Part shown: piece by piece, positions 1 through 62,467 of the stretch | Layout: every line of letters starts with the position of its first letter | Numbering within the stretch: the first letter of the stretch is position 1 | Source: Alphaproteobacteria bacterium | Lineage (GTDB): Bacteria > Pseudomonadota > Alphaproteobacteria > JAAXGF01 | Direction: 5' to 3' | DNA length: 64,000 bases | Assembly (NCBI GenBank): GCA_963555825.3 | Contig: CAUVXB020000002.1 | Location: 2,432,001-2,496,000 of the forward strand | Notes under the pieces: model-generated | Told to the model about the DNA's origin: nothing | Databases searched by the model: none | What the model saw: the letters and a program-made list of their open reading frames with translations, nothing else | Made by a program: the position numbers and the translations under genes

Positions 1-270
1 GAGCGGCGTACAAGACCAACGGCGATCCGCGGCGCCGCTGGTGTCGGCCATTTGCGCGCGTAGATGTGGAAATCGCTCGGTTCGACGGTGTAACCGGCAC
101 GCCGTACTCCTGTGATCGTCCAAGGGCCACACGGCCGCCGCGTTCATAGCGCGTCATGGCGGCATGCGGCAAGCCGCACGACGACGAGTTCGAATGTACG
201 ATCAATCGTCGCGCCGGTAAATCGCCGCGTTGACCGGCAGGGCTGGTTCGACGACCCCTCTGTCATGTAA

Positions 271-292
271 TATCACTGATCCTTGGTATAAG
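271..292. repeat. Isolated right terminal repeat of the TACCAAGGATCAGTGATA MITE family
   Basis: tatcactgatccttggtataag is identical to 22905-22926, the right end of the MITE after mobA. Confidence 0.75.
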
Positions 293-300
293 CTCGCCCG

Positions 301-1296
301 ATGACCAAGCGGTTCAGCGTTCTCGGCGCCGGCGCCTGGGGCACGGCGCTCGCTCATCGCCTCGCCGTCGCCGGCGCGGACACCACGTTGTGGGCGCGCG
401 ACGCGAGCGCCGCCGCCGCGATCAACGAGACCCACGAAAACGTCAGGCGCCTGCCCGGTGTCACGATTGACGCGCGCGTGCGCGCGACGGCCGAGATCGC
501 CGATGCGGCCGACGGCGACGCGATGCTGCTGGTCGTGCCGGCGCAGGCCGTGCGCGCGACCTGCCGCGCCTTGGCGGCAACCGGGCGCACCCTGCCGCCG
601 GTCGTGCTATGCGCCAAGGGCATCGAGGAAACCACCGGCGCCCTCATGCATCGGGTGGTGGTGGACGAAATCGCCGACGCCACCGTCGCGGTGCTGTCGG
701 GCCCGAGCTTCGCCAGCGAGCTGGCCCAGGGGCTACCGGCCGCCGTGACGCTTGCCGCGACCGACGACACGACCGCCCGGTCGATTGCCGCGCTGGTCGC
801 CTGCCCCGGCCTGCGGCCCTACACCTCGACCGACCTGGTCGGCGCCGAGATCGGCGGCGCGCTCAAGAACGTCTACGCCATCGCCTGCGGCATCGTCGAG
901 GGGCGCGGCCTGGGGGTCAACGCGCGCGCCGCGCTGATCACGCGCGGATTCGCCGAGATGCAGCGCCTCGGCCGCGCACTCGGCGCCCGGCCGGAGACGC
1001 TGGCCGGTCTCTGCGGTCTGGGCGATCTGGTGCTCAGCTGCACCAGCACCAAGTCGCGCAACTACGCCCTGGGCCACGCACTGGGCGCGGCGGCGCAAGC
1101 GCAGGAATCGCTCGATCACCCGCCGGCGCTGGTCGAGGGCGTCGCCACCGCGGCGGCGGTCACTAAACTAGGCGCCGCGCACGCGGTCGACCTGCCGATC
1201 GCCGCGGCGGTCGACGCCATCGTCCATTCGGGCGCCGCGGTCGACGCCGAGATCGAACGCCTGCTGACCCGCCCGCTACGCGCCGAGGGACCGTGA
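301..1296 (+). CDS. gpsA: NAD(P)H-dependent glycerol-3-phosphate dehydrogenase
   Basis: GAGAWGTALA Rossmann motif, LSGPSFA, GGALKNVYAIACG, GLGDLVLSC, SRNY. Confidence 0.95.
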   Translation: MTKRFSVLGAGAWGTALAHRLAVAGADTTLWARDASAAAAINETHENVRRLPGVTIDARVRATAEIADAADGDAMLLVVPAQAVRATCRALAATGRTLPPVVLCAKGIEETTGALMHRVVVDEIADATVAVLSGPSFASELAQGLPAAVTLAATDDTTARSIAALVACPGLRPYTSTDLVGAEIGGALKNVYAIACGIVEGRGLGVNARAALITRGFAEMQRLGRALGARPETLAGLCGLGDLVLSCTSTKSRNYALGHALGAAAQAQESLDHPPALVEGVATAAAVTKLGAAHAVDLPIAAAVDAIVHSGAAVDAEIERLLTRPLRAEGP

Positions 1297-5424: not shown

Positions 5425-6411
5425 ATGACCGTCCTCGTCACCGGCGCGACGGGCTTCGTCGGCGCGGCGGTGCTGCGCGCGCTGCTCGACGCCGGCCAGG
5501 CGGTGCGCGCGCTGGTCAGGGCGGGCAGCGACCGGCGCAACCTCGAAGGCCTCGATGTCGAGCCGGTCGAGGGCGAGCTCGGCGACGCGGCATCGCTGGG
5601 CCGCGCGGTGGCCGGCTGCGCGGCGCTCTACCACGTCGCCGCCGACTATCGCCTCTGGGTGCCCGAGCCGGCGGCGATCTACCGCGCCAACGTCGAGGGC
5701 ACGCGCGCGTTGATGCGCGCCGCGGCCGAGGCCGGCGTCGCGCGCATCGTCTACACCAGCAGCGTCGCCGTGCTGGGGCTTCACGCCGACGGCGCGCCGG
5801 CCGACGAGACGGTCCCGGCGACGCTCGTCGACATGATCGGCCATTACAAGCGCTCGAAGTTCCTCGCCGAGCAGGCGGTCGCCGAGATGGCCGCCGAAGG
5901 CCTGCCGGTCGTGATCGTCAACCCGTCGACGCCGATCGGCCCGCGCGACGTCAAGCCGACGCCGACCGGGCGCATGGTCGTCGAGGCGGCCGCCGGACGC
6001 ATGCCGGCCTTCGTCGACACCGGCCTCAACCTGGTGCATGTCGACGACGTCGCCGCCGGCCACCTGTTGGCCTTCGAGCATGGCGCGGTCGGCGAACGCT
6101 ACATCCTCGGCGGCCATGACATGAGCCTGCGCGACATCCTGGCCGAAATCGCGGCGATCGCCGGGCGCAAGCCGCCCAAGGTGAAGCTGCCGCACGGCCT
6201 GATCCTGCCCTTCGCCTATGCCGCCGAGGGCATCGCACGGTTGACCGGGCGCGAGCCGTTCGCCACGGTCGACGGCATCCGAATGGCGCGCAAGAAGATG
6301 TACTTCTCCTCGGCCAAGGCCCGCGCGGCGCTCGGCTACCGGCCGCGCCCGGCGCTCGAGGCGCTCAGCGACGCCGTCGCCTGGTTCCGCGCCAACGGCT
6401 ATCTCGATTAA
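5425..6411 (+). CDS. hpnA: Hopanoid-associated NAD-dependent sugar epimerase/dehydratase
   Basis: TGATGFVG, HVAADYRLW, YKRSK, GPRDVKPTPTG. Confidence 0.88.
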   Translation: MTVLVTGATGFVGAAVLRALLDAGQAVRALVRAGSDRRNLEGLDVEPVEGELGDAASLGRAVAGCAALYHVAADYRLWVPEPAAIYRANVEGTRALMRAAAEAGVARIVYTSSVAVLGLHADGAPADETVPATLVDMIGHYKRSKFLAEQAVAEMAAEGLPVVIVNPSTPIGPRDVKPTPTGRMVVEAAAGRMPAFVDTGLNLVHVDDVAAGHLLAFEHGAVGERYILGGHDMSLRDILAEIAAIAGRKPPKVKLPHGLILPFAYAAEGIARLTGREPFATVDGIRMARKKMYFSSAKARAALGYRPRPALEALSDAVAWFRANGYLD

Positions 6412-16226: not shown

Positions 16227-17231
16227 ATGACGACCGACCAACAGGCGGCGCCGAGCCGCGCGCCGATCGACCGGCACCTGAACGCCATGTACCCGGCAGT
16301 GGCGATGCTGGCGACGGTTCGGCTCGACGTCTTCACGCCGCTCGCCGACGGCCCGATGGACGCCGATCGGCTCGGCCGGGCGCTCGATCTCGGGGCCGAC
16401 AAGCTCTAACCGTTGCTCTACGCGCTGGTCATCGCCGAGCTGCTCACCGTCGCGGACGGCCGGTTCGCCAACACGGCGGCCGCCGATCATTATCTGGTGC
16501 GCGGCCGACCGGGCTATATCGGCGGCGGCCGGCGATTGCAGACCGACATCTGGCACACCGACCTCCGCACCGCCGAGACGATCCTGAGCGGCGCGCCCAA
16601 CGCCAGACTCGACTTTGCCGGCGTATCCGAGGCCGAACTGATGGACTTCTTCCGCGCCGAGCACGGCGGCGCGTTGGCCGAGGGCCGCGCGCTCGCCGAG
16701 GCGCTCGATCTCTGCCGGCACGACCGCCTGCTCGACGTTGCCGGTGGCTCGGGCGGGCTCGCGATCGGCGCCTGCGAGGCCTGCCCAAGTTTGCGCGCGA
16801 CCGTCGCCGACCTGCCTGCCGTCGTGCCGCTGACGCGGCGTTTCATTGCCGAGGCCGGCCTGGCCGAGCGGATCGACGCGCACGCCACCGACCTAATCGC
16901 GGATCCACCGGACGGCAGCTACGACATCGCCGTGCTGCGCAACTTCATCCAGGTCATTTCGCGCGACCAGGCGCGCCGGGCGTTGCGTCACATCGGCCAG
17001 GCGCTGGCGCCGGGCGGCGAAATCTGCATCGCGGGCTGGGTGCTCGACGATTCGGGCCTCGCGCCGCTCGAGATCGCGACCTCGAACTACGCCTTCCTCA
17101 ACGTCTACGACGAGGGCCGCGCCTATACCGAGGCCGAGCACCGCGACTGGCTCGCCGCGGCCGGATTCACCGACGTCGAACGCCACCTCGTCGCCGGCGG
17201 CAAGAGCCTGGTGACCGCGCGCAAGGCGTGA
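16227..17231 (+). pseudogene. O-methyltransferase family 2 with in-frame TAA at 16407-16409
   Basis: Dimerisation domain continues in frame into LLDVAGGSG, DLPAV. Confidence 0.8.
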
Positions 17232-17249
17232 GCCAGATCGGCGACCGCT

Positions 17250-17271
17250 GGTCGTGTCTCAGTTTGAAATT
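17250..17271. repeat. Left terminal inverted repeat of accessory module (pairs with 21080-21101)
   Basis: ggtcgtgtctcagtttgaaatt; its reverse complement matches aatttcaaaccgaggcactatc at 18/22. Confidence 0.7.
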
Positions 17272-17310
17272 CAGTCGAAACAACGCCCGGAACGTCGGCT
17301 GTTCAGCGGA

Positions 17311-17386
17311 TCATGTCTGCGTTGCACGCGACAGCAGACCTTGGCGCGCGGTCATCGGCACAGCCGCTTTTGACCCGGAGCGGACT
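17311..17386 (+). repeat. Hairpin array type L
   Basis: atgtctgc..gcagac and ccgcttttgacccggagcgg stems; homologous to 50014-50088. Confidence 0.8.
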
Positions 17387-17697
17387 TTCATGGTGTTGGA
17401 CGCCAAGTCGATGCCATCAAACAAATTTCGAGCACGATGGGGAGTTTTTCCGTCACCTGCTGGTGTTGTCATCGATCGCCTCTCGCTCTATCATCGTCGG
17501 TAACCAGGAGGAATCATTCCGACTATCCTGGATAAATTTCCGCGTCGGGATAGGTCAGAGCATCGACCAGATTTTCCGAGTGGGCAATCAATTCCGTTGT
17601 GGACAGTGTGTATCGTCCCGGACCTTTGGGCTCGGCCCGCCGGTGGTGTGCTGGTGGCCGCCGGTGTGACTGGCATCGGCTAACGTAGGGGGCTCAC

Positions 17698-18267
17698 ATG
17701 AACAAGCTTTTGACCATGATTTCCGCCGTGGCGCTACTCACGGCCATCGCGGGTTCGGCATACGCCGACCAACATGAAAAGACCGTTTTCATCACGAGTT
17801 CGACCTTCAAGGGCAACCTAGGCGGGCTCGCGGGAGCCGACGACAAGTGCCAGGCGGAGGCGGACGGCCCGGCATCAATCGTTCCTTCCGGCACTTACTT
17901 GGCTTGGCTATCCGATGGAACCGACAGCCCCGATACCCGCTTCACCAAGTCTGCCCATCCTTACATGCTGCCCGATGGAACGAAGATCGCCGAAAATTAT
18001 ACCGATCTAACGGACGTATCCATCCTACACGCAATCACCATCGACTCCACCGGCAAAGCCCTCGGGCAACAACCGTTCTGGACGGGCACAAAGGCCGATG
18101 GCACAACCGCGCCACTATCCGTGACATGCACCGGGTGGAAGGACCCTTTACCTTATCATCATGGAATGCACGGGCAGACAAATAGGACGAACTCATCCTG
18201 GTCCACAATGCACTCTAACGATTCGTGCCGCAACAGATCCGCCCCTTTACTGTGCTTCCAGCAATAA
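17698..18267 (+). CDS. Secreted DUF1554/endostatin-like (C-type lectin fold) protein
   Basis: Signal peptide; VFITS..F.GNLGGLAGADDKCQ, YLAWLS, WTGT, terminal LLCFQQ. Confidence 0.7.
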   Translation: MNKLLTMISAVALLTAIAGSAYADQHEKTVFITSSTFKGNLGGLAGADDKCQAEADGPASIVPSGTYLAWLSDGTDSPDTRFTKSAHPYMLPDGTKIAENYTDLTDVSILHAITIDSTGKALGQQPFWTGTKADGTTAPLSVTCTGWKDPLPYHHGMHGQTNRTNSSWSTMHSNDSCRNRSAPLLCFQQ

Positions 18268-18688
18268 GGGACGGTCGCTTCCGGGATTTTTCCATACGCA
18301 GTGAGCCCGGCACCTCGTTGACCGCCTTGACCGCTTTCCTCAGCCGTCAGCGCGTCGACGCGAGCGCCAGGATGTCGTCCATGAATCTGTTGTAGAACAG
18401 GCCGGACCTCGCCATCCGCTGACACCGCGCTAACTTCTCCTATTGGCTATGTGTGGACGGCCCCGATTTGGCAAGGGTTGTTTTGACGGTCATGCAAGTT
18501 GGTCGGGTGCGGCTATGTGTTCGGCCCGTTTGCGCGATACGACGATCGCTGGCCCTAATGCGATCCGCGGATCGGGTCCCAGTTATAAGCACGAGCTCAG
18601 TGGCTCCGTAGCCAAGACGGGTTTCTCCGATCCCCGGTGTTCGACCGGTCTTGCATTACCTCACGATCACCCTGCCAAAAGGGTTTAA

Positions 18689-19863
18689 TACCAGTGAGCC
18701 TATGAAATCGCCTTCATGATCCATGGATAGGCGCAGAGGGTTCGCATACGATCCGGTTCTGCGATGAGGTCGATCCATGCTTGGCAACAGGCGTCGATGA
18801 TGGCCTCGGTGTCGTCGAGGACGCGGAGCGATAGGAAGCGTTCGCGTAGGTAGAGCCAAACCCGCTCGACGGGGTTGAGTTCGGGACTGTAAGGCGGCAA
18901 CAGCGCCAAGGTGACGTTGTCGGGGACGGTGAGGGCGCGCTCGTCGTGCCAACCGGCGCCGTCGCACATCATGACGGCGTGCGCATCCTGGTCCAGGGTA
19001 TCGGCGAAGTGTGCGAGAAACAGGTCCATGACCTTGGCGTTGACGCTCGGCATCACCAGGGTGACGTCGTCGCCGGTGTCCGGGCGCACGGCGGAGAAGA
19101 TGTAGGCCCACTGGTAGCCGATTTGACGCGTCCCGGGGGCACGCTCGCCCCTGCGCCACCACCGGTGACACACCCGGCCCTTGTTGCCGACGCGCGCTTC
19201 ATCCTGAAACCACAGCTGTAGGCGCTTGTCGGGATGCGCCGCGGCGGTCGCCTTCAGGATGTCGCGAAGCCCCCTTTTTTGAAGCGCTCCTGCGCTTCGG
19301 CGTCCCTTCGCGGGTGGCTCGGGCGCGCCTTCTGGCGGGAAAATCCCATCCGCCGTAGAACCCGGGTCATGCTCGAGGGGTGGTAGGTCTTGGCGAAGCG
19401 CTCCTCCAGCCAGCGGCACAGATCGGCCCGGGTCCAGGCGCAAACCCCGTCGCGCTCAGGCTCCGGCCCGGCGATGATGACCGCCGCCAGCGCCGCTTCC
19501 TCGTCTGCCGTCAGCCGCCGCGGCGAGTAGCCCTTTGGACGGTCGTGAAGCCCCTCCAATCCCTTTGCATTGTAACGAACAACCGCGTCGCGAAGCGTTT
19601 GGCGATCCATCCCCGCAAGCCGCGCGGCATCAGCCCGGGGCATCTCCTCCAAAGCATTCGCGATCCCATAGGCCCGCGCCGCCGCTCGACCGTACGATTC
19701 CACGCGAGCCCAGCGCCGAAGCTCCAAAGGCGTCAAATCATCCCGTATCTTGAGTGCTGATCCCATGACATCCCCCACATCTGGTGGGAGACCATAGAAT
19801 CACAATCCGCCATCATCCGCCATCAATGAATATCCCGAGAGTCAATTCAGGCGCTCACTGGTA
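18689..19863 (-). mobile_element. IS630-family element, copy 1
   Basis: TIRs taccagtgagc/gctcactggta; flanked by TAA direct repeat. Confidence 0.92.
18700..19766 (-). CDS. IS630 transposase (orfA HTH + orfB DDE, programmed -1 frameshift)
   Basis: AAAAAAG slippery site at about 19274-19280; WFQDEAR, CDGAGWH, LPPYSPELNPVE. Confidence 0.9.
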
Positions 19864-19876
19864 TAAGACGTCTGCC

Positions 19877-20908
19877 TCAAGCGGCGGTGACCGCTGGCTG
19901 ACGGTAGGTTCCACCATTGGCGAGCAGCGCCCAGGCGGTTCGTGCGTTCTTGTTGGCCAGCGCCACGGCGGCGAGCTTGGTCGGTTTGCGCGCCACGAGA
20001 TCGCCCAGCCAAGGCCGTTTGGCGAAGTTCGTTCTTCGCCCGTGGCGTATCACCGTCATGGCGCCGGCGACGAGCAGCCATCGCAGGTAGTGGTCGCCCG
20101 CCTTTGAGATGCGCCCGAGCCGCTGCTTGCCGCCGGTCGATATCTGTCTGGGCACCAGACCGATCCAAGCCGCCAGTTCACGCCCCGATCTGAACACCGA
20201 AGGGTCGGCGATCGAGGCCGCCAGCGCACTCGCCGTGAGCGGTCCGATGCCGGGAATGGTCGCCAGACGTTGGCTGACCTGGTTCGCCCGATGCCAGGCA
20301 TGAATGCGCTGCTCGGTGATGGTGATCTCGCGCTCCAGCGACAGCAACTGCCGCGCCAGTCCTTCCAGGCATGTTCGTGCCAATGGCGGGATGCGTTCAT
20401 CGCCCTCATCAGCGATGACCGCGAGGAGTTCCTTCACCTGCGGCAGCCCGACCCGGGCGACGACCCCGAACTCCGCCATGTGCGCGCGGATCGCGTTGAC
20501 CAGCATGGTCCGCTGCCGAACCAGGAGTTCGCGCGTCCGGTGGTCCATCAACACGCTCTGCTGCGCGGCCGTCTTGACCGCCACGAAACGCATCGATGGC
20601 CGCGTTACCGCTTCGCAGATCGCTTCGGCATCCGCCGCGTCGTTCTTGTTGCGCTTGACGTAGGGCTTCACGTAAGCCGCCGGCATGATGCGCACCTCAT
20701 GGCCAAGCGCCCCGAGTTCCCGCGCCCAATGGTGCGACGTCGCGCAGGCCTCGATACCGACCAGACAAGCCGGCTGCTTGCTGAAGAACGGCACAACCTG
20801 GCGGCGCCTCAGTTGCCGGCGGATCACGGTCTCGCCTGAGACATCGACCCCGTGAACCTGGAAAACGTTCTTCGCAAGATCAAGTCCGATCGTGTTAACC
20901 TCGGTCAT
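19877..20908 (-). CDS. IS110/IS1111 transposase (DEDD recombinase)
   Basis: IGLDLAK, GIEAC, KNDAADA, IPGIG, STGGKQRLGRISK. Confidence 0.95.
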   Translation of the reverse strand: MTEVNTIGLDLAKNVFQVHGVDVSGETVIRRQLRRRQVVPFFSKQPACLVGIEACATSHHWARELGALGHEVRIMPAAYVKPYVKRNKNDAADAEAICEAVTRPSMRFVAVKTAAQQSVLMDHRTRELLVRQRTMLVNAIRAHMAEFGVVARVGLPQVKELLAVIADEGDERIPPLARTCLEGLARQLLSLEREITITEQRIHAWHRANQVSQRLATIPGIGPLTASALAASIADPSVFRSGRELAAWIGLVPRQISTGGKQRLGRISKAGDHYLRWLLVAGAMTVIRHGRRTNFAKRPWLGDLVARKPTKLAAVALANKNARTAWALLANGGTYRQPAVTAA

Positions 20909-20989
20909 AGGACGGCTCCTTTGTAAGTGATCAGCCAACAGCTACCACTTCTGGCACCTAGATGCCGCGTGGGGCCGTCCACCCCATTA

Positions 20990-21101
20990 CACCTGGACTC
21001 GATGGCTGCACCGGAACGATGACCGCTTTCGGACGATCGGCCGACATACCAGTCCGCTTCGTGCTTTCGAGCCACGTCAAATTTCAAACCGAGGCACTAT
21101 C
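20990..21101 (+). repeat. Hairpin array type R (second part; first part 18433-18449) plus right terminal IR
   Basis: The rebuilt site aligns without gaps to 52156-52247; the tail gtgctttcgagccacgtc matches about 53709-53727. Confidence 0.85.
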
Positions 21102-21143
21102 CGCGCGCTTGGCCTGGCGGCGATTTCGCGCCATATTGGCGTC

Positions 21144-22025
21144 ATGGGCGATTATCTGCTGAAACCCGATCCGGCCGATCCCCGGCTGACCAACCGGGTC
21201 ACCGGGCGCGACCACGAAGGCAACGAGGTCGAGACCTCGGTCGTCGTCGAGCGGCCGCTGACGCTCTATCTCAACGGCCAGGAGATCGTCACCATGATGA
21301 CGATCGGCGACTTTCCCGGCTATCTGGCGGTCGGCTATCTGCTGAACCAGAACATGCTGCACGCCGACGACAAGATCACCGCGATCGACCACGACGACGA
21401 GATCGACACCGTCGTCGTGCGCACCAAGCGCAAGACCGACTACGAGAAGAAGCTCAAGAAGAAGACGCTGACCTCGGGTTGCGCCCAGGGCACCGTGTTC
21501 GGCGACGTCATGGAGCGCTTCGAGGCGATCGAGTTAGACCCGAACGCCATCGTGCGCACCTCGTGGATCTACGCTCTCGCGAAGCGGATCAACACCACCG
21601 AGAGCCTCTACCTCGCGGCCGGCGCGATCCACGGCTGCGTCTTGTGCGAGGAGGACCGGCCGCTGATCTACATGGAGGACGTCGGCCGCCACAACGCGAT
21701 CGACAAGATCGCCGGCTACATGTTCCTCGAGGGGATATCGCCCAAGGGCAAGCTGTTCTACACGACCGGCCGGCTGACCTCGGAGATGGTGCTCAAGACG
21801 GTGCAGATGGAGATCCCCATCCTGATGTCGCGTTCGGGCTTCACCGCCTGGGGCGTCGAGCTGGCGCGCGAGGCGAATCTCACGCTGATCGGCCGCGCCA
21901 AGGGCAAGCGCTTCATCGCGCTCGCCGGCGACGACCGCATCGTCTACGACGCCGACACCGCCAAGGCGTGGGACGAGCCCGCCGCCATCCAGCGCAAGGC
22001 GAGCCGCGCCGACGATGCCGCGTGA
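21144..22025 (+). CDS. fdhD: Formate dehydrogenase accessory sulfurtransferase
   Basis: [33 protein letters not shown]. Confidence 0.93.
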
Positions 22026-49941: not shown

Positions 49942-50013
49942 GTTCCGCGTCCTCCCCGCGTGGCCGATTGAGGCGCAGAGCCTAGCCCGGTTCGCGCGGT
50001 GGGGATAGGCGCG

Positions 50014-50088
50014 TCATGTCTGCCTTGCGCCCGAAAGCAGACATCGGGTTACGGCCAACGGTAAAGCCGCTTTTGACCCGAAGCGGCC
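50014..50088 (+). repeat. Hairpin array type L
   Basis: atgtctgccttgcgcccgaaagcagacat...gccgcttttgacccgaagcggc; homologous to 17311-17386. Confidence 0.8.
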
Positions 50089-50274
50089 CAAAGGTTGGAT
50101 TGAGGAGCGGCGGCTGGAATCGACCCCCAACGGACTCACGCATGAGCTTCCTTAAAGCGGACATTCGACTCGCTTCGTCGCAGCTTGGAGGCATCCAACA
50201 CTGACAGCTGAGTCGGCCCCGATTTCCTTGGACACAGAATTGGCTTAATCGAAGTGTCCAAGGAGGACCGGAAC

Positions 50275-50685
50275 ATGACCGACAATTTTGAGAACAAAGT
50301 TGCTGTTGATGGGCCTGTGGTAAACGAGGGCGAGCTTGGCTCGTCCACGTTTTCCCCGGGCCAGGTTTCGCCGGCAGGCCCGCTGGGACTTGGCCAGCGG
50401 TGGACGGTGACGCGCAAGCGTGAGGTTGCCCTGCGGCTTTTGCGTGGCGAGCCGGTGGAACTTTTGTCGCGGCAGTTGGGCGTGGAGATTTTCCGGCTCG
50501 AGCAGTGGCGTGAGAAGGCGATCGCCGGGATCGATGCCTCGCTCAAGGAACGCAAGGGCGATCCGGTGAAGGCGGAACTGGACATCGCCATGAAGCGGAT
50601 CGGGGAGTTGATCATGCAGGTGGAACTGCTGGAGGCCAAGACGGAGACGTCCGGCCCTTTGGGGCGGCGGAGGTCGCGGCGATGA
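50275..50685 (+). CDS. IS3-family OrfA (HTH)
   Basis: RWTVTRKREVALRLLRGE..LSRQLGV; start uncertain. Confidence 0.75.
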   Translation: MTDNFENKVAVDGPVVNEGELGSSTFSPGQVSPAGPLGLGQRWTVTRKREVALRLLRGEPVELLSRQLGVEIFRLEQWREKAIAGIDASLKERKGDPVKAELDIAMKRIGELIMQVELLEAKTETSGPLGRRRSRR

Positions 50686-51593
50686 GTGCCGCCACCTCTC
50701 CCGGCACGGGTTTGGCCTACGGCCTCCAGCGGGTCTGTGCGGCCTGGGGTTTTGCCCGTTCCTCGTTCTACGCCATGAAATCCCGGCAGCAGGCCACCGC
50801 TGAGCGCCCACCAGCAAAGCGCCGGGGACCGAAGCCCTCGATCTCGGACGAGGCTCTGCTGGTGGCCATCGAGGCCGACCTGGAGGCATCCCCCTGGGAG
50901 GGCGAGGGACACCGCAAGGTCTGGGCTCGGCTTCGGGTCTGTCGTGGCATCCGTGTTTCCCGCAAGCGGGGGCTCCGGGTGATGCGCGAGAACAACCTGC
51001 TCTCGCCCCATCGCTGCCGCCGCCGTGGCGGAAATCCCCATGTCGGTGAGATCATCACCCATGCCCCCAACCTCATGTGGGGCACGGACGGCGTTCGGGT
51101 GTTCACGGTGGACGACGGCTGGGGCTGGATATTCACCGCCATCGAGCATTGGAACGCCGAGTGCGTCGGCTGGCATGTGTGCAAGCGAGGCGACCGCTTC
51201 GCCGCCCTTCAGCCGATCTCCATGGGGCTTGCGAGGCTGTATGCCTCGACCTCCGCCGGTGCGGCGCGGGGGCTGGCCTTGCGGATGGATCACGGCTCCC
51301 AGTATCTGTCGGACCACTTCACCAACCAGATCAAGTTCTGGGGCATCCAGCCGTCCTACGCCTTCGTCGAACAGCCCCAGACCAACGGCGTCGCCGAGAG
51401 GTTCAATCGCACGCTCAAGGAACAGATCATCCATGGCCGCATCTACCGCAACATCGCGGAGCTGCGGAACGCCGTCCGCGGGTTCGTCGAACAGTACAAT
51501 GCCCAGTGGATCGTGGAGAAGAACGGCTACCTGAGCCCCGCTCAAGCTCGTCAGGCGTGGCACACCGCGATGTCACTCAGGCCCGCCGCATGA
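50682..51593 (+). CDS. IS3-family OrfB integrase-core transposase
   Basis: PNLMWGTD, DHGSQY, NGVAERFNRTLKE. Confidence 0.9.
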   Translation: MSAATSPGTGLAYGLQRVCAAWGFARSSFYAMKSRQQATAERPPAKRRGPKPSISDEALLVAIEADLEASPWEGEGHRKVWARLRVCRGIRVSRKRGLRVMRENNLLSPHRCRRRGGNPHVGEIITHAPNLMWGTDGVRVFTVDDGWGWIFTAIEHWNAECVGWHVCKRGDRFAALQPISMGLARLYASTSAGAARGLALRMDHGSQYLSDHFTNQIKFWGIQPSYAFVEQPQTNGVAERFNRTLKEQIIHGRIYRNIAELRNAVRGFVEQYNAQWIVEKNGYLSPAQARQAWHTAMSLRPAA

Positions 51594-52155: not shown

Positions 52156-52247
52156 ACTTCTCCTCTTGGCTAAAAGCCGACCAAATAGCTGCACCAGAAC
52201 GACGGCCGCTTTCAGGCGACAAGCCGACATGCGAGTCCGCTTGGTGC
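52156..52247 (+). repeat. Hairpin array type R (intact)
   Basis: Gapless homologue of the site split by IS1111. Confidence 0.85.
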
Positions 52248-52459
52248 GATCCGGGACGCCCTCCATCGTCCCGCCCGGCCGGATCGCGCCCAGACGATCG
52301 CGTGAAGCCCCGACCGAAGGAACATCCAGTCCGGATCGCCGGCGGCCGATCGACGTCATCCCGGACCGGACAGGGGTTGACCTGCTGGCAACGACGCCGC
52401 TGTTGTGGTGTGATCGATCGTTGACCAAGATCGACGCGCAACTCTCCGGCGGGCGGTCC

Positions 52460-53668
52460 ATGGAAAACTATCTCAATTCACTGTTGAGCGGGCCGGTGCC
52501 CAGGGAATTGTCATTCCCACCCGAGGAATATGCCGCTCGACTGGCGCGGGTGCGCGAAAAGATGGCGGCGAGCGAGATCGATGTGCTGCTCGTGCACAGC
52601 GCCGTCGATCTTTGTTACCTGACGGGCTATCAGACTCTGTGGCCGGACGCCTATGCCTGCCTCATCGTGCCGCTAGCCGAGCCGCCTTTCATGCAGGTCG
52701 GCGAGATCGAAGCGTCATGCGCGGTGCTGCACGGAGAAATTCAGGATCTTGTGCTGTTTGATTGGGTTGGTGCAGATGCGGTGCCAGGCCAGCTCGCCGA
52801 GCTGCTGGCCGACCGGGGGTTTGCACGGAGCCGGATCGGCGTGCAAGCCGGCCGCATCGAAATGGGCAGTCGTGGTCCCCTCGACGCCAAGCTGTTGGAC
52901 ACCTTGCGCGCGAAACTGGACGATGCGCGTTTCGTGGATGCCACGCTGTTGCTGTTCGATGTGCGGGTCACGAAATCACCTGCCGAACTCGAGCGGATGC
53001 GCGCGGCAGCAAGAATCACCACGGCCGGAATGCGTGCCGCTGTCGACGCCATCGAGCCGGGAAAAACCGAGAACGACGTCGCCGCCTTGGCCGCCAAGGT
53101 CATGATCGAGCGGGGATCAGAGTTCTTCTCGATCGATCCAATCGTCAATGCCGGACACCGTACCGGCTATTTCCACACGACCTTCAAACGCCACCCGATT
53201 TCCGCCGGTGATCCGGTACAGCTTGAATTCGGCGGTTGTTTCCACCGCTACACGGCACCCCTGATGCGGACCGTATTGACCGGCCAACCGAGCGACCTTC
53301 AGCAACGCATGATCGATACCCAGCTCGCGGCTCTTGAAACGCTCTACGGCGCCGTTCGCGCCGGCCGCAGCACACGAGACGTTGCGCATGAGGTTGATGC
53401 TGTGATCGGTTCACTAGATCGCGAAATCTTTCGGTCCGGCCATTTCGGCTATTCGATCGGGCTGGGATTTCCGCCGACCTGGACCGATGGTCCGGCCTAC
53501 CTCTCCGATACAAGGGATTTGGAACTTGCTGTCGGCATGACATTCCACACGCCATTCGCCTGGCGTATCTCCAAGCAATTCGTAATCGGCACGAGCGAAT
53601 CCATTGCCGTCGGCGAAACGGGCTGCGAAATCCTCACCAGCGAAGAGCGTGAGGTTGTCGTCAAGTGA
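52460..53668 (+). CDS. M24 family hydrolase (creatinase / ectoine hydrolase DoeA-like)
   Basis: EEYAARL, YLTGY, KSPAEL, RYTAPLMRT, GYSIGLGFPPTW. Confidence 0.85.
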   Translation: MENYLNSLLSGPVPRELSFPPEEYAARLARVREKMAASEIDVLLVHSAVDLCYLTGYQTLWPDAYACLIVPLAEPPFMQVGEIEASCAVLHGEIQDLVLFDWVGADAVPGQLAELLADRGFARSRIGVQAGRIEMGSRGPLDAKLLDTLRAKLDDARFVDATLLLFDVRVTKSPAELERMRAAARITTAGMRAAVDAIEPGKTENDVAALAAKVMIERGSEFFSIDPIVNAGHRTGYFHTTFKRHPISAGDPVQLEFGGCFHRYTAPLMRTVLTGQPSDLQQRMIDTQLAALETLYGAVRAGRSTRDVAHEVDAVIGSLDREIFRSGHFGYSIGLGFPPTWTDGPAYLSDTRDLELAVGMTFHTPFAWRISKQFVIGTSESIAVGETGCEILTSEEREVVVK

Positions 53669-53750
53669 ACGAGCGTTCGGATGACAAGCCGAAGTACGAG
53701 ACCGCTTAGTGCTTTCAAGCCACGTCGAATCGGGAGCCGCGACACGCCCA
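53667..53750 (+). repeat. Partial hairpin array type R with degenerate module end
   Basis: ttcggatgacaagccga..gaccgcttagtgctttcaagccacgtc is homologous to about 21028-21078. Confidence 0.65.
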
Positions 53751-62280: not shown

Positions 62281-62370
62281 ATGTCTCCTCACTGGCTATT
62301 CGCGGACCTAATGGCCGCGCCTATCGAATGACCGCTTTCGGGCGGTAAGCTGACCCACGAAATCGCTTCC
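62281..62370 (+). repeat. Hairpin array type R (diverged)
   Basis: tctcctcactggcta..gac..atggc.gc.cc..cgaatgaccgctttcgggcggtaagctgac resembles 52156 and the rebuilt IS1111 site. Confidence 0.65.
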
Positions 62371-62467
62371 TATTTTCCGAAACGCGCCGCGCCGCCCCGC
62401 TGGATCGCGCGCGGGCGATCGCGTAGAGTCCCGGCCCAAGAACCAACCAGCCCGGAGACGCGCCACC

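Follow-up and report, generated by a model that had tools for sequence, protein, structure and literature searches.

A probable mobile insertion cassette with IS1-family ends, and the repeat family to which it belongs, in an alphaproteobacterial genome

Mobile insertion cassettes (MICs), of which the IS231-derived MIC231 of Bacillus cereus is an example, carry one or more passenger genes between inverted repeats (IRs) of insertion sequence (IS) type, lack a transposase, and are mobilized in trans by a cognate IS, generating a target duplication. The term is defined in PMC3129680, and passenger-bearing transporter ISs (tISs) are described for the IS1 and IS1595 families in PMC3129680, PMC7986276, and PMC9330008. 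Here, positions 17250 to 21101 of a 64,000-nucleotide stretch of alphaproteobacterial DNA were analyzed (the window, G000:C2:2432001-2496000, where G000 is the genome studied and C1 and C2 are its contigs). The unit found at these positions is very probably a non-autonomous cargo transposon, that is, an MIC, derived from passenger-carrying IS1-family ISs. Mobile elements of this kind are already known, and the unit does not represent a new system of gene capture.

The window unit resembles MICs in its IS-type IRs around a passenger gene, its lack of a transposase, and its target duplication, and like them it would have been mobilized in trans. It differs in that its ends are of the IS1 family rather than the IS4 family, in that its relatives share constant ends of about 135 bp while the cargo varies over dozens of copies, and in that no cognate autonomous element accompanies it in the genome. 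It resembles tISs in its terminal repeat, its 8-bp duplication, and the passenger cargo that its ends enclose, but it lacks their transposase of about 294 amino acids (aa), and its subterminal sequence is unlike that of any autonomous copy seen. IS200/IS605-type palindrome elements and REP/RAYT systems, with their subterminal hairpins and neither IRs nor duplication, are its opposite on all of these points. Tn3-family ends measure about 38 bp and their duplications 5 bp. The 22-bp IR of IS1 type and the 8-bp duplications thus distinguish the unit from the Tn3-derived inverted-repeat miniature elements and mosaic non-autonomous transposons treated in PMC4133298, with which it shares transposon-type ends and DNA carried between them.

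The boundaries at 17250 and 21101 are real. The 22-bp terminal IR matches at 18 of 22 positions (17250-17271, GGTCGTGTCTCAGTTTGAAATT; 21080-21101, AATTTCAAACCGAGGCACTATC), and an inverted-repeat search lengthens it to 26 nt with 81% complementarity. The unit ends read GGTCGTG... and ...CACTATC, flanked by an 8-bp target-site duplication whose left copy is cgaccgct (17242-17249) and whose right copy is cgcgcgct (21102-21109). The left end module, L (17250-17385, plus strand), consists of the IR followed by about 115 bp of lineage-specific subterminal sequence; the right end module, R, also on the plus strand, is split by an IS110-family insertion into an inner part (about 18425-18443, possibly to 18449) and an outer part (20989-21101). 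The subterminal GCGGTCATCG is present at both 17348 and 21017. Between the modules lies the cargo gene (17698-18267, plus strand), which encodes a secreted protein of 189 aa with a match to PF07588 (DUF1554; 5.8e-11), a signal-peptide-like N-terminus as read from the translation, and weak matches, far under the cut-off, to the Leptospira endostatin-like Len families (LenF/LenAB-like in NCBIfam). Its guanine-plus-cytosine (GC) content is 0.563, versus 0.653 for the genome and 0.709 for the left flanking gene. The spacer upstream of it (17386-17697, plus strand) contains one promoter-like site (17466-17494), external to L and no more than chance would give (1 site found, 0.7 expected), and the open reading frame (ORF) at 17313-17669 has no match in Pfam or PHROG. 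Downstream, the interval 18268-18443 (plus strand) comprises a second spacer and the severed inner part of R.

Setting aside the IS110-family and IS630-family insertions, the residual unit (17250-18443 plus 20989-21101) amounts to 1307 bp, and DUF1554 is its only Pfam domain match. An earlier sequence-only reading of this stretch had described a 22-bp terminal IR with 18 matches, some 1.3 kb remaining after removal of the two ISs, a lower-GC secreted gene between the ends, and no native transposase or integrase; each of these was confirmed, the last by domain search, and the secreted gene can now be assigned to the DUF1554 family.

IS1 ends take the form GGnnnTG, and the target duplication of the family is 8-9 bp. 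The terminal repeat of the unit, GGT(A/C)GTGTCTC(A/G)GTTTGAAATT, is shared with the ends of single-ORF IS1-family elements, a very large group that spans several phyla. The window copy matches the transposase-bearing elements L031, L051, L076, and L079 (labels of this form are locus names; L and R alone denote the end modules), as well as an element on an Acidiphilium plasmid, while the IR of a sister copy at C1 380892 is identical over 22 nt to that of the autonomous elements L051 and L079. A search tolerating as many as 5 mismatches places the 22-bp IR at 28 sites in the genome, 26 of them at L or R ends; the other two are the R terminus of a unit starting at C1 649254 and a remnant of another IS1-like lineage. 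The undescribed, integron-like gene-capture system that the sequence-only reading had proposed is not borne out by these results, since the motifs match a known IS end, that of the single-ORF IS1-family elements.

A wider scan with the exact 18-nt core of the IR, using one genome per species, returned at least 120 loci in Alphaproteobacteria, Gammaproteobacteria, Bacteroidota, Acidobacteriota, Nitrospinota, and other groups, some single matches being possibly due to chance. Among the 120 loci listed, the transposase of about 294 aa was detected by tblastn in 45, and an inverted pair of IRs in 46. The 8-bp duplication was perfect in 27 of these 46 pairs and agreed at 7 of 8 positions in another 9. 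A near-full transposase is enclosed by 19 of the pairs, which measure 2.1-4.8 kb, far above the need of a 0.9-kb gene; these elements therefore carry passengers. Three further pairs enclose transposase fragments, and the remaining 24, of 79-2584 bp, enclose none and are miniature inverted-repeat transposable elements and transposase-less cargo units.

The transposase carries an N-terminal helix-turn-helix (HTH) region and matches part of the PF03400 (DDE_Tnp_IS1) model with 23-34 bits, against a cut-off of 24.1. Four autonomous elements were inspected, and in each the ORF ends in ISN followed by a TGA stop codon located inside one terminal repeat. Its close relatives in public sources are named 'IS1 family transposase' (8000 candidates scored, all with E <=1e-20), and RefSeq entries of that name occur on plasmids of Acidiphilium, Hoeflea, and Mesorhizobium. 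The element on the Acidiphilium multivorum plasmid NZ_CP041717.1 is 2634 bp long, has IRs 2 and 1 mismatches from the motif and a duplication, aagccgag, conserved at 8 of 8 positions, and contains the transposase with four other ORFs. Passengers of autonomous copies include IrrE/M78-HTH proteins, SDH-type proteases, and a DNA methylase-HNH protein, and transposase-less copies from the IR scan contain a SocA/Panacea protein or an IrrE-type pair. These elements presumably belong to the ISfinder single-ORF IS1 subgroup (ISMhu11), which spans 0.9-4.6 kb and includes passenger genes.

At the end away from the transposase, immediately internal to the repeat, autonomous elements also contain a short ORF (about 75-83 aa) with no Pfam family. 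It was located at 6098-6343 (minus strand) in L079, at the non-transposase end of L051, and at 170-421 (plus strand) in L031; it starts with MPxGPxGxKRPAD in two elements, and the L079 and L031 versions are 37% identical. This small ORF is possibly an accessory gene of the single-ORF IS1 group. Pieces of a small ORF are also present in a remnant of a different IS1-like lineage at C2 3299023-3300986, where they are split by an ISLre2-type insertion; the end of this remnant, GTAGTGGGTCAGTTTGAATTTC, equals the IR of an autonomous copy in the related genome G018 (L159).

The ends of the window unit define two repeat families. In blastn searches, 17250-17385 and 20988-21103 each proved to be repeated many times in the genome, and iterated nhmmer searches yielded 31 matches to L and 24 to R. 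The modules occur as pairs in the same orientation, spaced 0.75 kb to 12 kb apart, and bracket unrelated cargo at no fewer than a dozen genome sites, while alignment shows that the outer flanks beyond the terminal repeats differ for every copy. According to Pfam, the cargo comprises AA_synth, RidA/L-PSP, a TPR/Sel1 protein of 526 aa, a glyoxalase with a zinc alcohol dehydrogenase, GFA proteins, an alpha/beta hydrolase, and an adenylate cyclase-AAA-TPR protein of 1142 aa; the longest L-R pairs contain several genes and later IS insertions. Cargo is found in both orientations relative to L, and in five short units its GC content is 0.52-0.61, below that of the genome. Many copies of L and R are truncated or interrupted by ISs, and they are 49-100% identical, with pairwise medians of 0.71 for L and 0.73 for R.

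The family extends beyond this genome. L is present in 8 of the 41 genomes searched as relatives, including the window's own; the others comprise 5 of 12 further genomes from its own family and 2 from different families within the class, with identities of up to 89%. Three complete units in relatives carry an alpha/beta hydrolase, a DACNV-domain protein, and a GFA protein. In metagenomes, an 18-nt L pattern retrieved 50 loci, of which 29 contain a true L, 7 a complete L..R pair, and 1 a partial pair, with cargo that includes molybdopterin oxidoreductases, a four-gene amino-acid ABC transporter, a lipoprotein, and a cyclase-TPR-rhodanese protein, among others; a 25-nt L pattern gave no match there. 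A literature search by words, which was not made by sequence and did not cover supplements, found no description of the L/R family.

Elsewhere in the window, a partial L (50006-50088) and three partial R modules (52179-52251, 53666-53749, and 62297-62377) lack terminal repeats and surround an IS3-type insertion (50254-51593) and a creatinase/M24 peptidase gene (52166-53668); these partial modules are decayed sister units. At C2 2722974-2723184 lies a fusion of two modules: an R, with an IS110-family relative ahead of it, is joined to an L from which about 26 initial nt are missing. The fusion point falls inside a shared CGAAAC stretch, and an inverted duplicate of the whole arrangement lies at 3616534-3616744.

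Target duplications were scored in 15 units of the family, taking the termini as GGT(A/C)GTG...CAC(T/G)A(C/T)C. Perfect 8-bp duplications flank three of them (cgcccgtg at C2 205900, cggcacgg at C2 1073400, and cgccgcgg at L030), one unit agrees at 7 of 8 positions, and four, the window copy among them, at 6 of 8. Such IRs and duplications suggest a route to the present locus. An IS1-family transposase acting in trans would bind both 22-bp repeats of the unit, excise or copy it, and insert it with duplication of 8 bp of target, which would have brought the DUF1554 gene between an O-methyltransferase gene and fdhD. The IS110-family element would have entered its preferred site in R later, with the IS630 element now situated in its 3' non-coding region. 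A non-autonomous unit of foreign genes that needs action in trans had also been envisaged by the sequence-only reading, and that general view is supported; the unit belongs to a family whose members bear unrelated genes.

The cognate transposase was sought in several ways. It is absent from the genome studied, as judged by tblastn with four queries (best E 0.29) and by a genome search with 0 matches in G000, and none of the 28 IR sites flanks a resident transposase gene. Outside this genome it was found in 7 of 40 others (G003, G007, G008, G018, G023, G029, and as a fragment in G004), and G007 combines a full-length transposase with L/R units. Beyond the IR, no similarity was detected between L or R and the termini of autonomous elements, save for a weak nhmmer match (E 3e-4) to the non-transposase end of L079, and searches inside L and R for remnants of the transposase or of the small ORF (tblastn and frame translations) gave nothing convincing. 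A native transposase was further sought by running against Pfam those ORFs that reach 120 aa, 164 out of 192, from 16 loci with paired units and unpaired L copies. The transposases encountered in those 16 loci, of the IS110, IS630, IS1595, IS30, ISLre2/UPF0236, IS256, and IS3 types, were rejected as candidates, and none shares the IR. Both types checked by tblastn are independent high-copy ISs, the ISLre2 type with about 35 full identical copies and the IS1595 type with about 8 full copies at 99.7-100% identity plus partial ones.

A number of observations weigh against derivation from passenger-carrying IS1-family ISs. No autonomous element with the 135-bp L/R subterminal sequence was found in the genome or at 10 transposase loci of relatives. 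Among the 120 IR loci listed, L/R-type ends occur in only 1, itself without a transposase, and the 50 metagenome loci, 29 with true L, include none with a transposase. Co-occurrence is loose: L and the transposase are each present in 7 of the 40 genomes and coincide in no more than three, G004, G007, and G029; of these, two hold fragments only, and most of the 40 genomes are incomplete assemblies. The IS1-family partner is therefore deduced from the 22-bp IR and the duplication length by themselves. The best NCBIfam model for the transposase, NF033558, scores 67-76 bits, below its cut-off of 100. The window duplication agrees at only 6 of 8 positions (cgaccgct / cgcgcgct), and in the units beyond the eight with at least 6 matching positions it is poor or unscorable, an end being rearranged or indels intervening. 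No empty site was found: the methyltransferase gene occurs in 1 of 12 other genomes of the family, there without an adjoining fdhD, and an order-level search added none. Finally, derivation from such ISs leaves unexplained how constant ends came to be shared by differing cargo.

A variant of this account addresses those shared ends. The L/R units could be an obligately non-autonomous lineage that parasitizes IS1-family passenger elements through the 22-bp repeat alone, with the ends serving as portable homology for the recombinational swap of cargo. We regard this as unlikely. If it were true, a little-sampled alphaproteobacterial order would possess a transposon-borne pool of exchangeable genes, filling the role that integron cassettes have elsewhere.

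It is highly improbable that L-cargo-R units are still mobile through a resident non-cognate transposase, for instance of the IS1595 family. This is the family closest to IS1 and likewise yields 8-bp duplications, which would fit such a mover, and tblastn and PF12762 reveal at least 10 diverged lineages of its transposase in the genome. Against it stand the 28 IR sites, none of which, allowing up to 5 mismatches, flanks a resident transposase, the decayed duplications, and the divergence of the modules themselves, whose identity of 49-100% (median 0.71) contrasts with the value of at least 97% seen for active ISs in this genome. Derivation from passenger-carrying IS1-family ISs remains the preferred account, and under it the window unit is a fossil, an old and immobile relic: no cognate transposase is present, L and R have diverged, and both the IR (18 of 22) and the duplication (6 of 8) have decayed. 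Active elements would have entered it since.

The tandem GC-rich hairpin arrays that had been described on both sides of the cargo gene did not hold up. Folding of L and R is no better than that of dinucleotide shuffles (z -0.21 and +0.33, respectively), and the RNAalifold consensus of 20 L and 13 R copies is weak (-4.2 and -3.3 kcal/mol), with no favorable covariation term. An inverted-repeat search detected nothing local in L, gave a palindrome of 11 nt as the sole match in R, and showed none of the short repeats typical of attC, and Rfam, searched with E up to 1, returned nothing beyond one chance-level snoRNA match. As for the GTCCGCTT/AGCGGAC motif taken for a hairpin stem, one arm is in R and the other in L: R contains GTCCGC a single time (21052) and L contains GCGGAC a single time (17380), so that the two belong to an extended, imperfect inverted symmetry joining both ends. 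The L profile also matches one R copy weakly in reverse in nhmmer searches. The structured-looking stretch to the right of the cargo gene (18444-18690) is 3' non-coding DNA of the IS110-family element; it lies outside the unit and recurs with that IS and its relatives.

These data bear as well on the proposal that L and R are modules retained by the host under selection, as promoters, insulators, or sources of small RNA, their IS origin being only historical. The 135-bp ends, with identities as high as 89%, can still be recognized in different genera and in a second family, and they stay constant while the cargo varies, as such a role would lead one to expect. The modules nevertheless show no structure signal and no Rfam family, the lone promoter-like site lies outside L at chance level, cargo stands in both orientations relative to L, and many copies are truncated or hit by ISs, so that this proposal appears highly improbable.

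A recombinase-driven cassette system, in which the hairpin arrays at the ends would act as attC-like sites for a tyrosine recombinase or an HUH nuclease, would suit the diverse, lower-GC cargo, the lack of a transposase inside the unit, and the targeting of R by an IS110-family element, some relatives of which target attC sites, but it is largely refuted and retains almost no probability, given that L and R show neither fold nor covariation nor any Rfam match, that terminal IRs with 8-bp duplications are marks of DDE transposition rather than of site-specific or single-strand recombination, and that the units, with cargo in either orientation and an IS1-family end as their IR, stand solitary among unrelated genes and form no arrays. 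The likeness to integron gene cassettes, which are also small, often hold one gene, carry diverse and often foreign cargo, and have no mobility gene of their own, ends there: the window unit has IRs and an 8-bp duplication, takes cargo in both orientations, and has no attC fold or array. No attI/intI context was seen at the locus; the genome was not searched for intI.

The unit is solitary in the spacer between the O-methyltransferase gene on its left (16413-17231, PF00891) and fdhD on its right (21144-22025, PF02634). The IS110-family element that divides R occupies approximately 18444-20988 on the minus strand, and its transposase (19877-20938, minus strand) matches NF033542 ('IS110 family RNA-guided transposase') with 336.8 bits against a cut-off of 140, as well as PF01548 and PF02371. 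The element has 12-bp inverted repeats in subterminal position (18453-18464 and 20971-20982), and its 3' non-coding region is formed by 18444-18690 together with 19862-19876. Alignment of R copies indicates that the uninterrupted module reads ...TGTCTCCT..TGGCTA|CNCCCGGACTC..., and its halves are recognizable in the window as cttctcctatTGGCTA at 18434-18449 and cacctggactc from 20990. Five copies of the element, 96-98% identical, are present in the genome, three of them at this same position of R, between TGGCTA and CACC(C/T)GGACTC.

The IS630-family element nested in this IS (18691-19861, minus strand) is flanked by TA at 18689-90 and 19862-63, has inverted ends and two overlapping ORFs (19254-19778 and 18700-19443), and matches DDE_3 (PF13358) and HTH_33/32/29/28 in Pfam; 67 near-full-length copies, all at least 96.9% identical, occur in the genome. 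The three IS110 copies located in R (window 18444-20988, C2 525391-530213, and C2 1067013-1069557) carry it at the same internal site, and the two copies away from R modules (C2 1013037-1014402 and 1017027-1018394) are without it. The two nested elements seem to have been propagated together, despite the insertion in the 3' non-coding region. Beside IS110 copies 77% identical to that of the window, head-to-tail arrays built from repeats of about 134 bp were observed at C1 169586-170282, C2 2097731-2099656, and C2 1402804-1403231. Their repeat units match the 3' non-coding region of the window IS (18449-18581 and on), and the arrays look like a multiplied non-coding, possibly guide-RNA-encoding, IS110 end. 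The IS load of the genome is very heavy overall, including, besides IS630 and ISLre2/UPF0236, many diverged IS1595 lineages and several IS110 lineages.

What appeared to be a new gene-cassette module thus very probably turns out to be a transposase-less derivative of a passenger-carrying IS1-family IS, and the current understanding of transposition is left unchanged. A practical outcome is an annotation rule absent from genome pipelines, as GGTAGTGTCTCAGTTTGAAATT together with an 8-bp duplication flags these units. At this locus, in addition, a repeat module has served an RNA-guided IS110-family element as the place of insertion. The family is unusually rich, with cargo ranging up to a four-gene transporter operon, and it offers a good natural case for studying how cargo enters between the ends of an IS.

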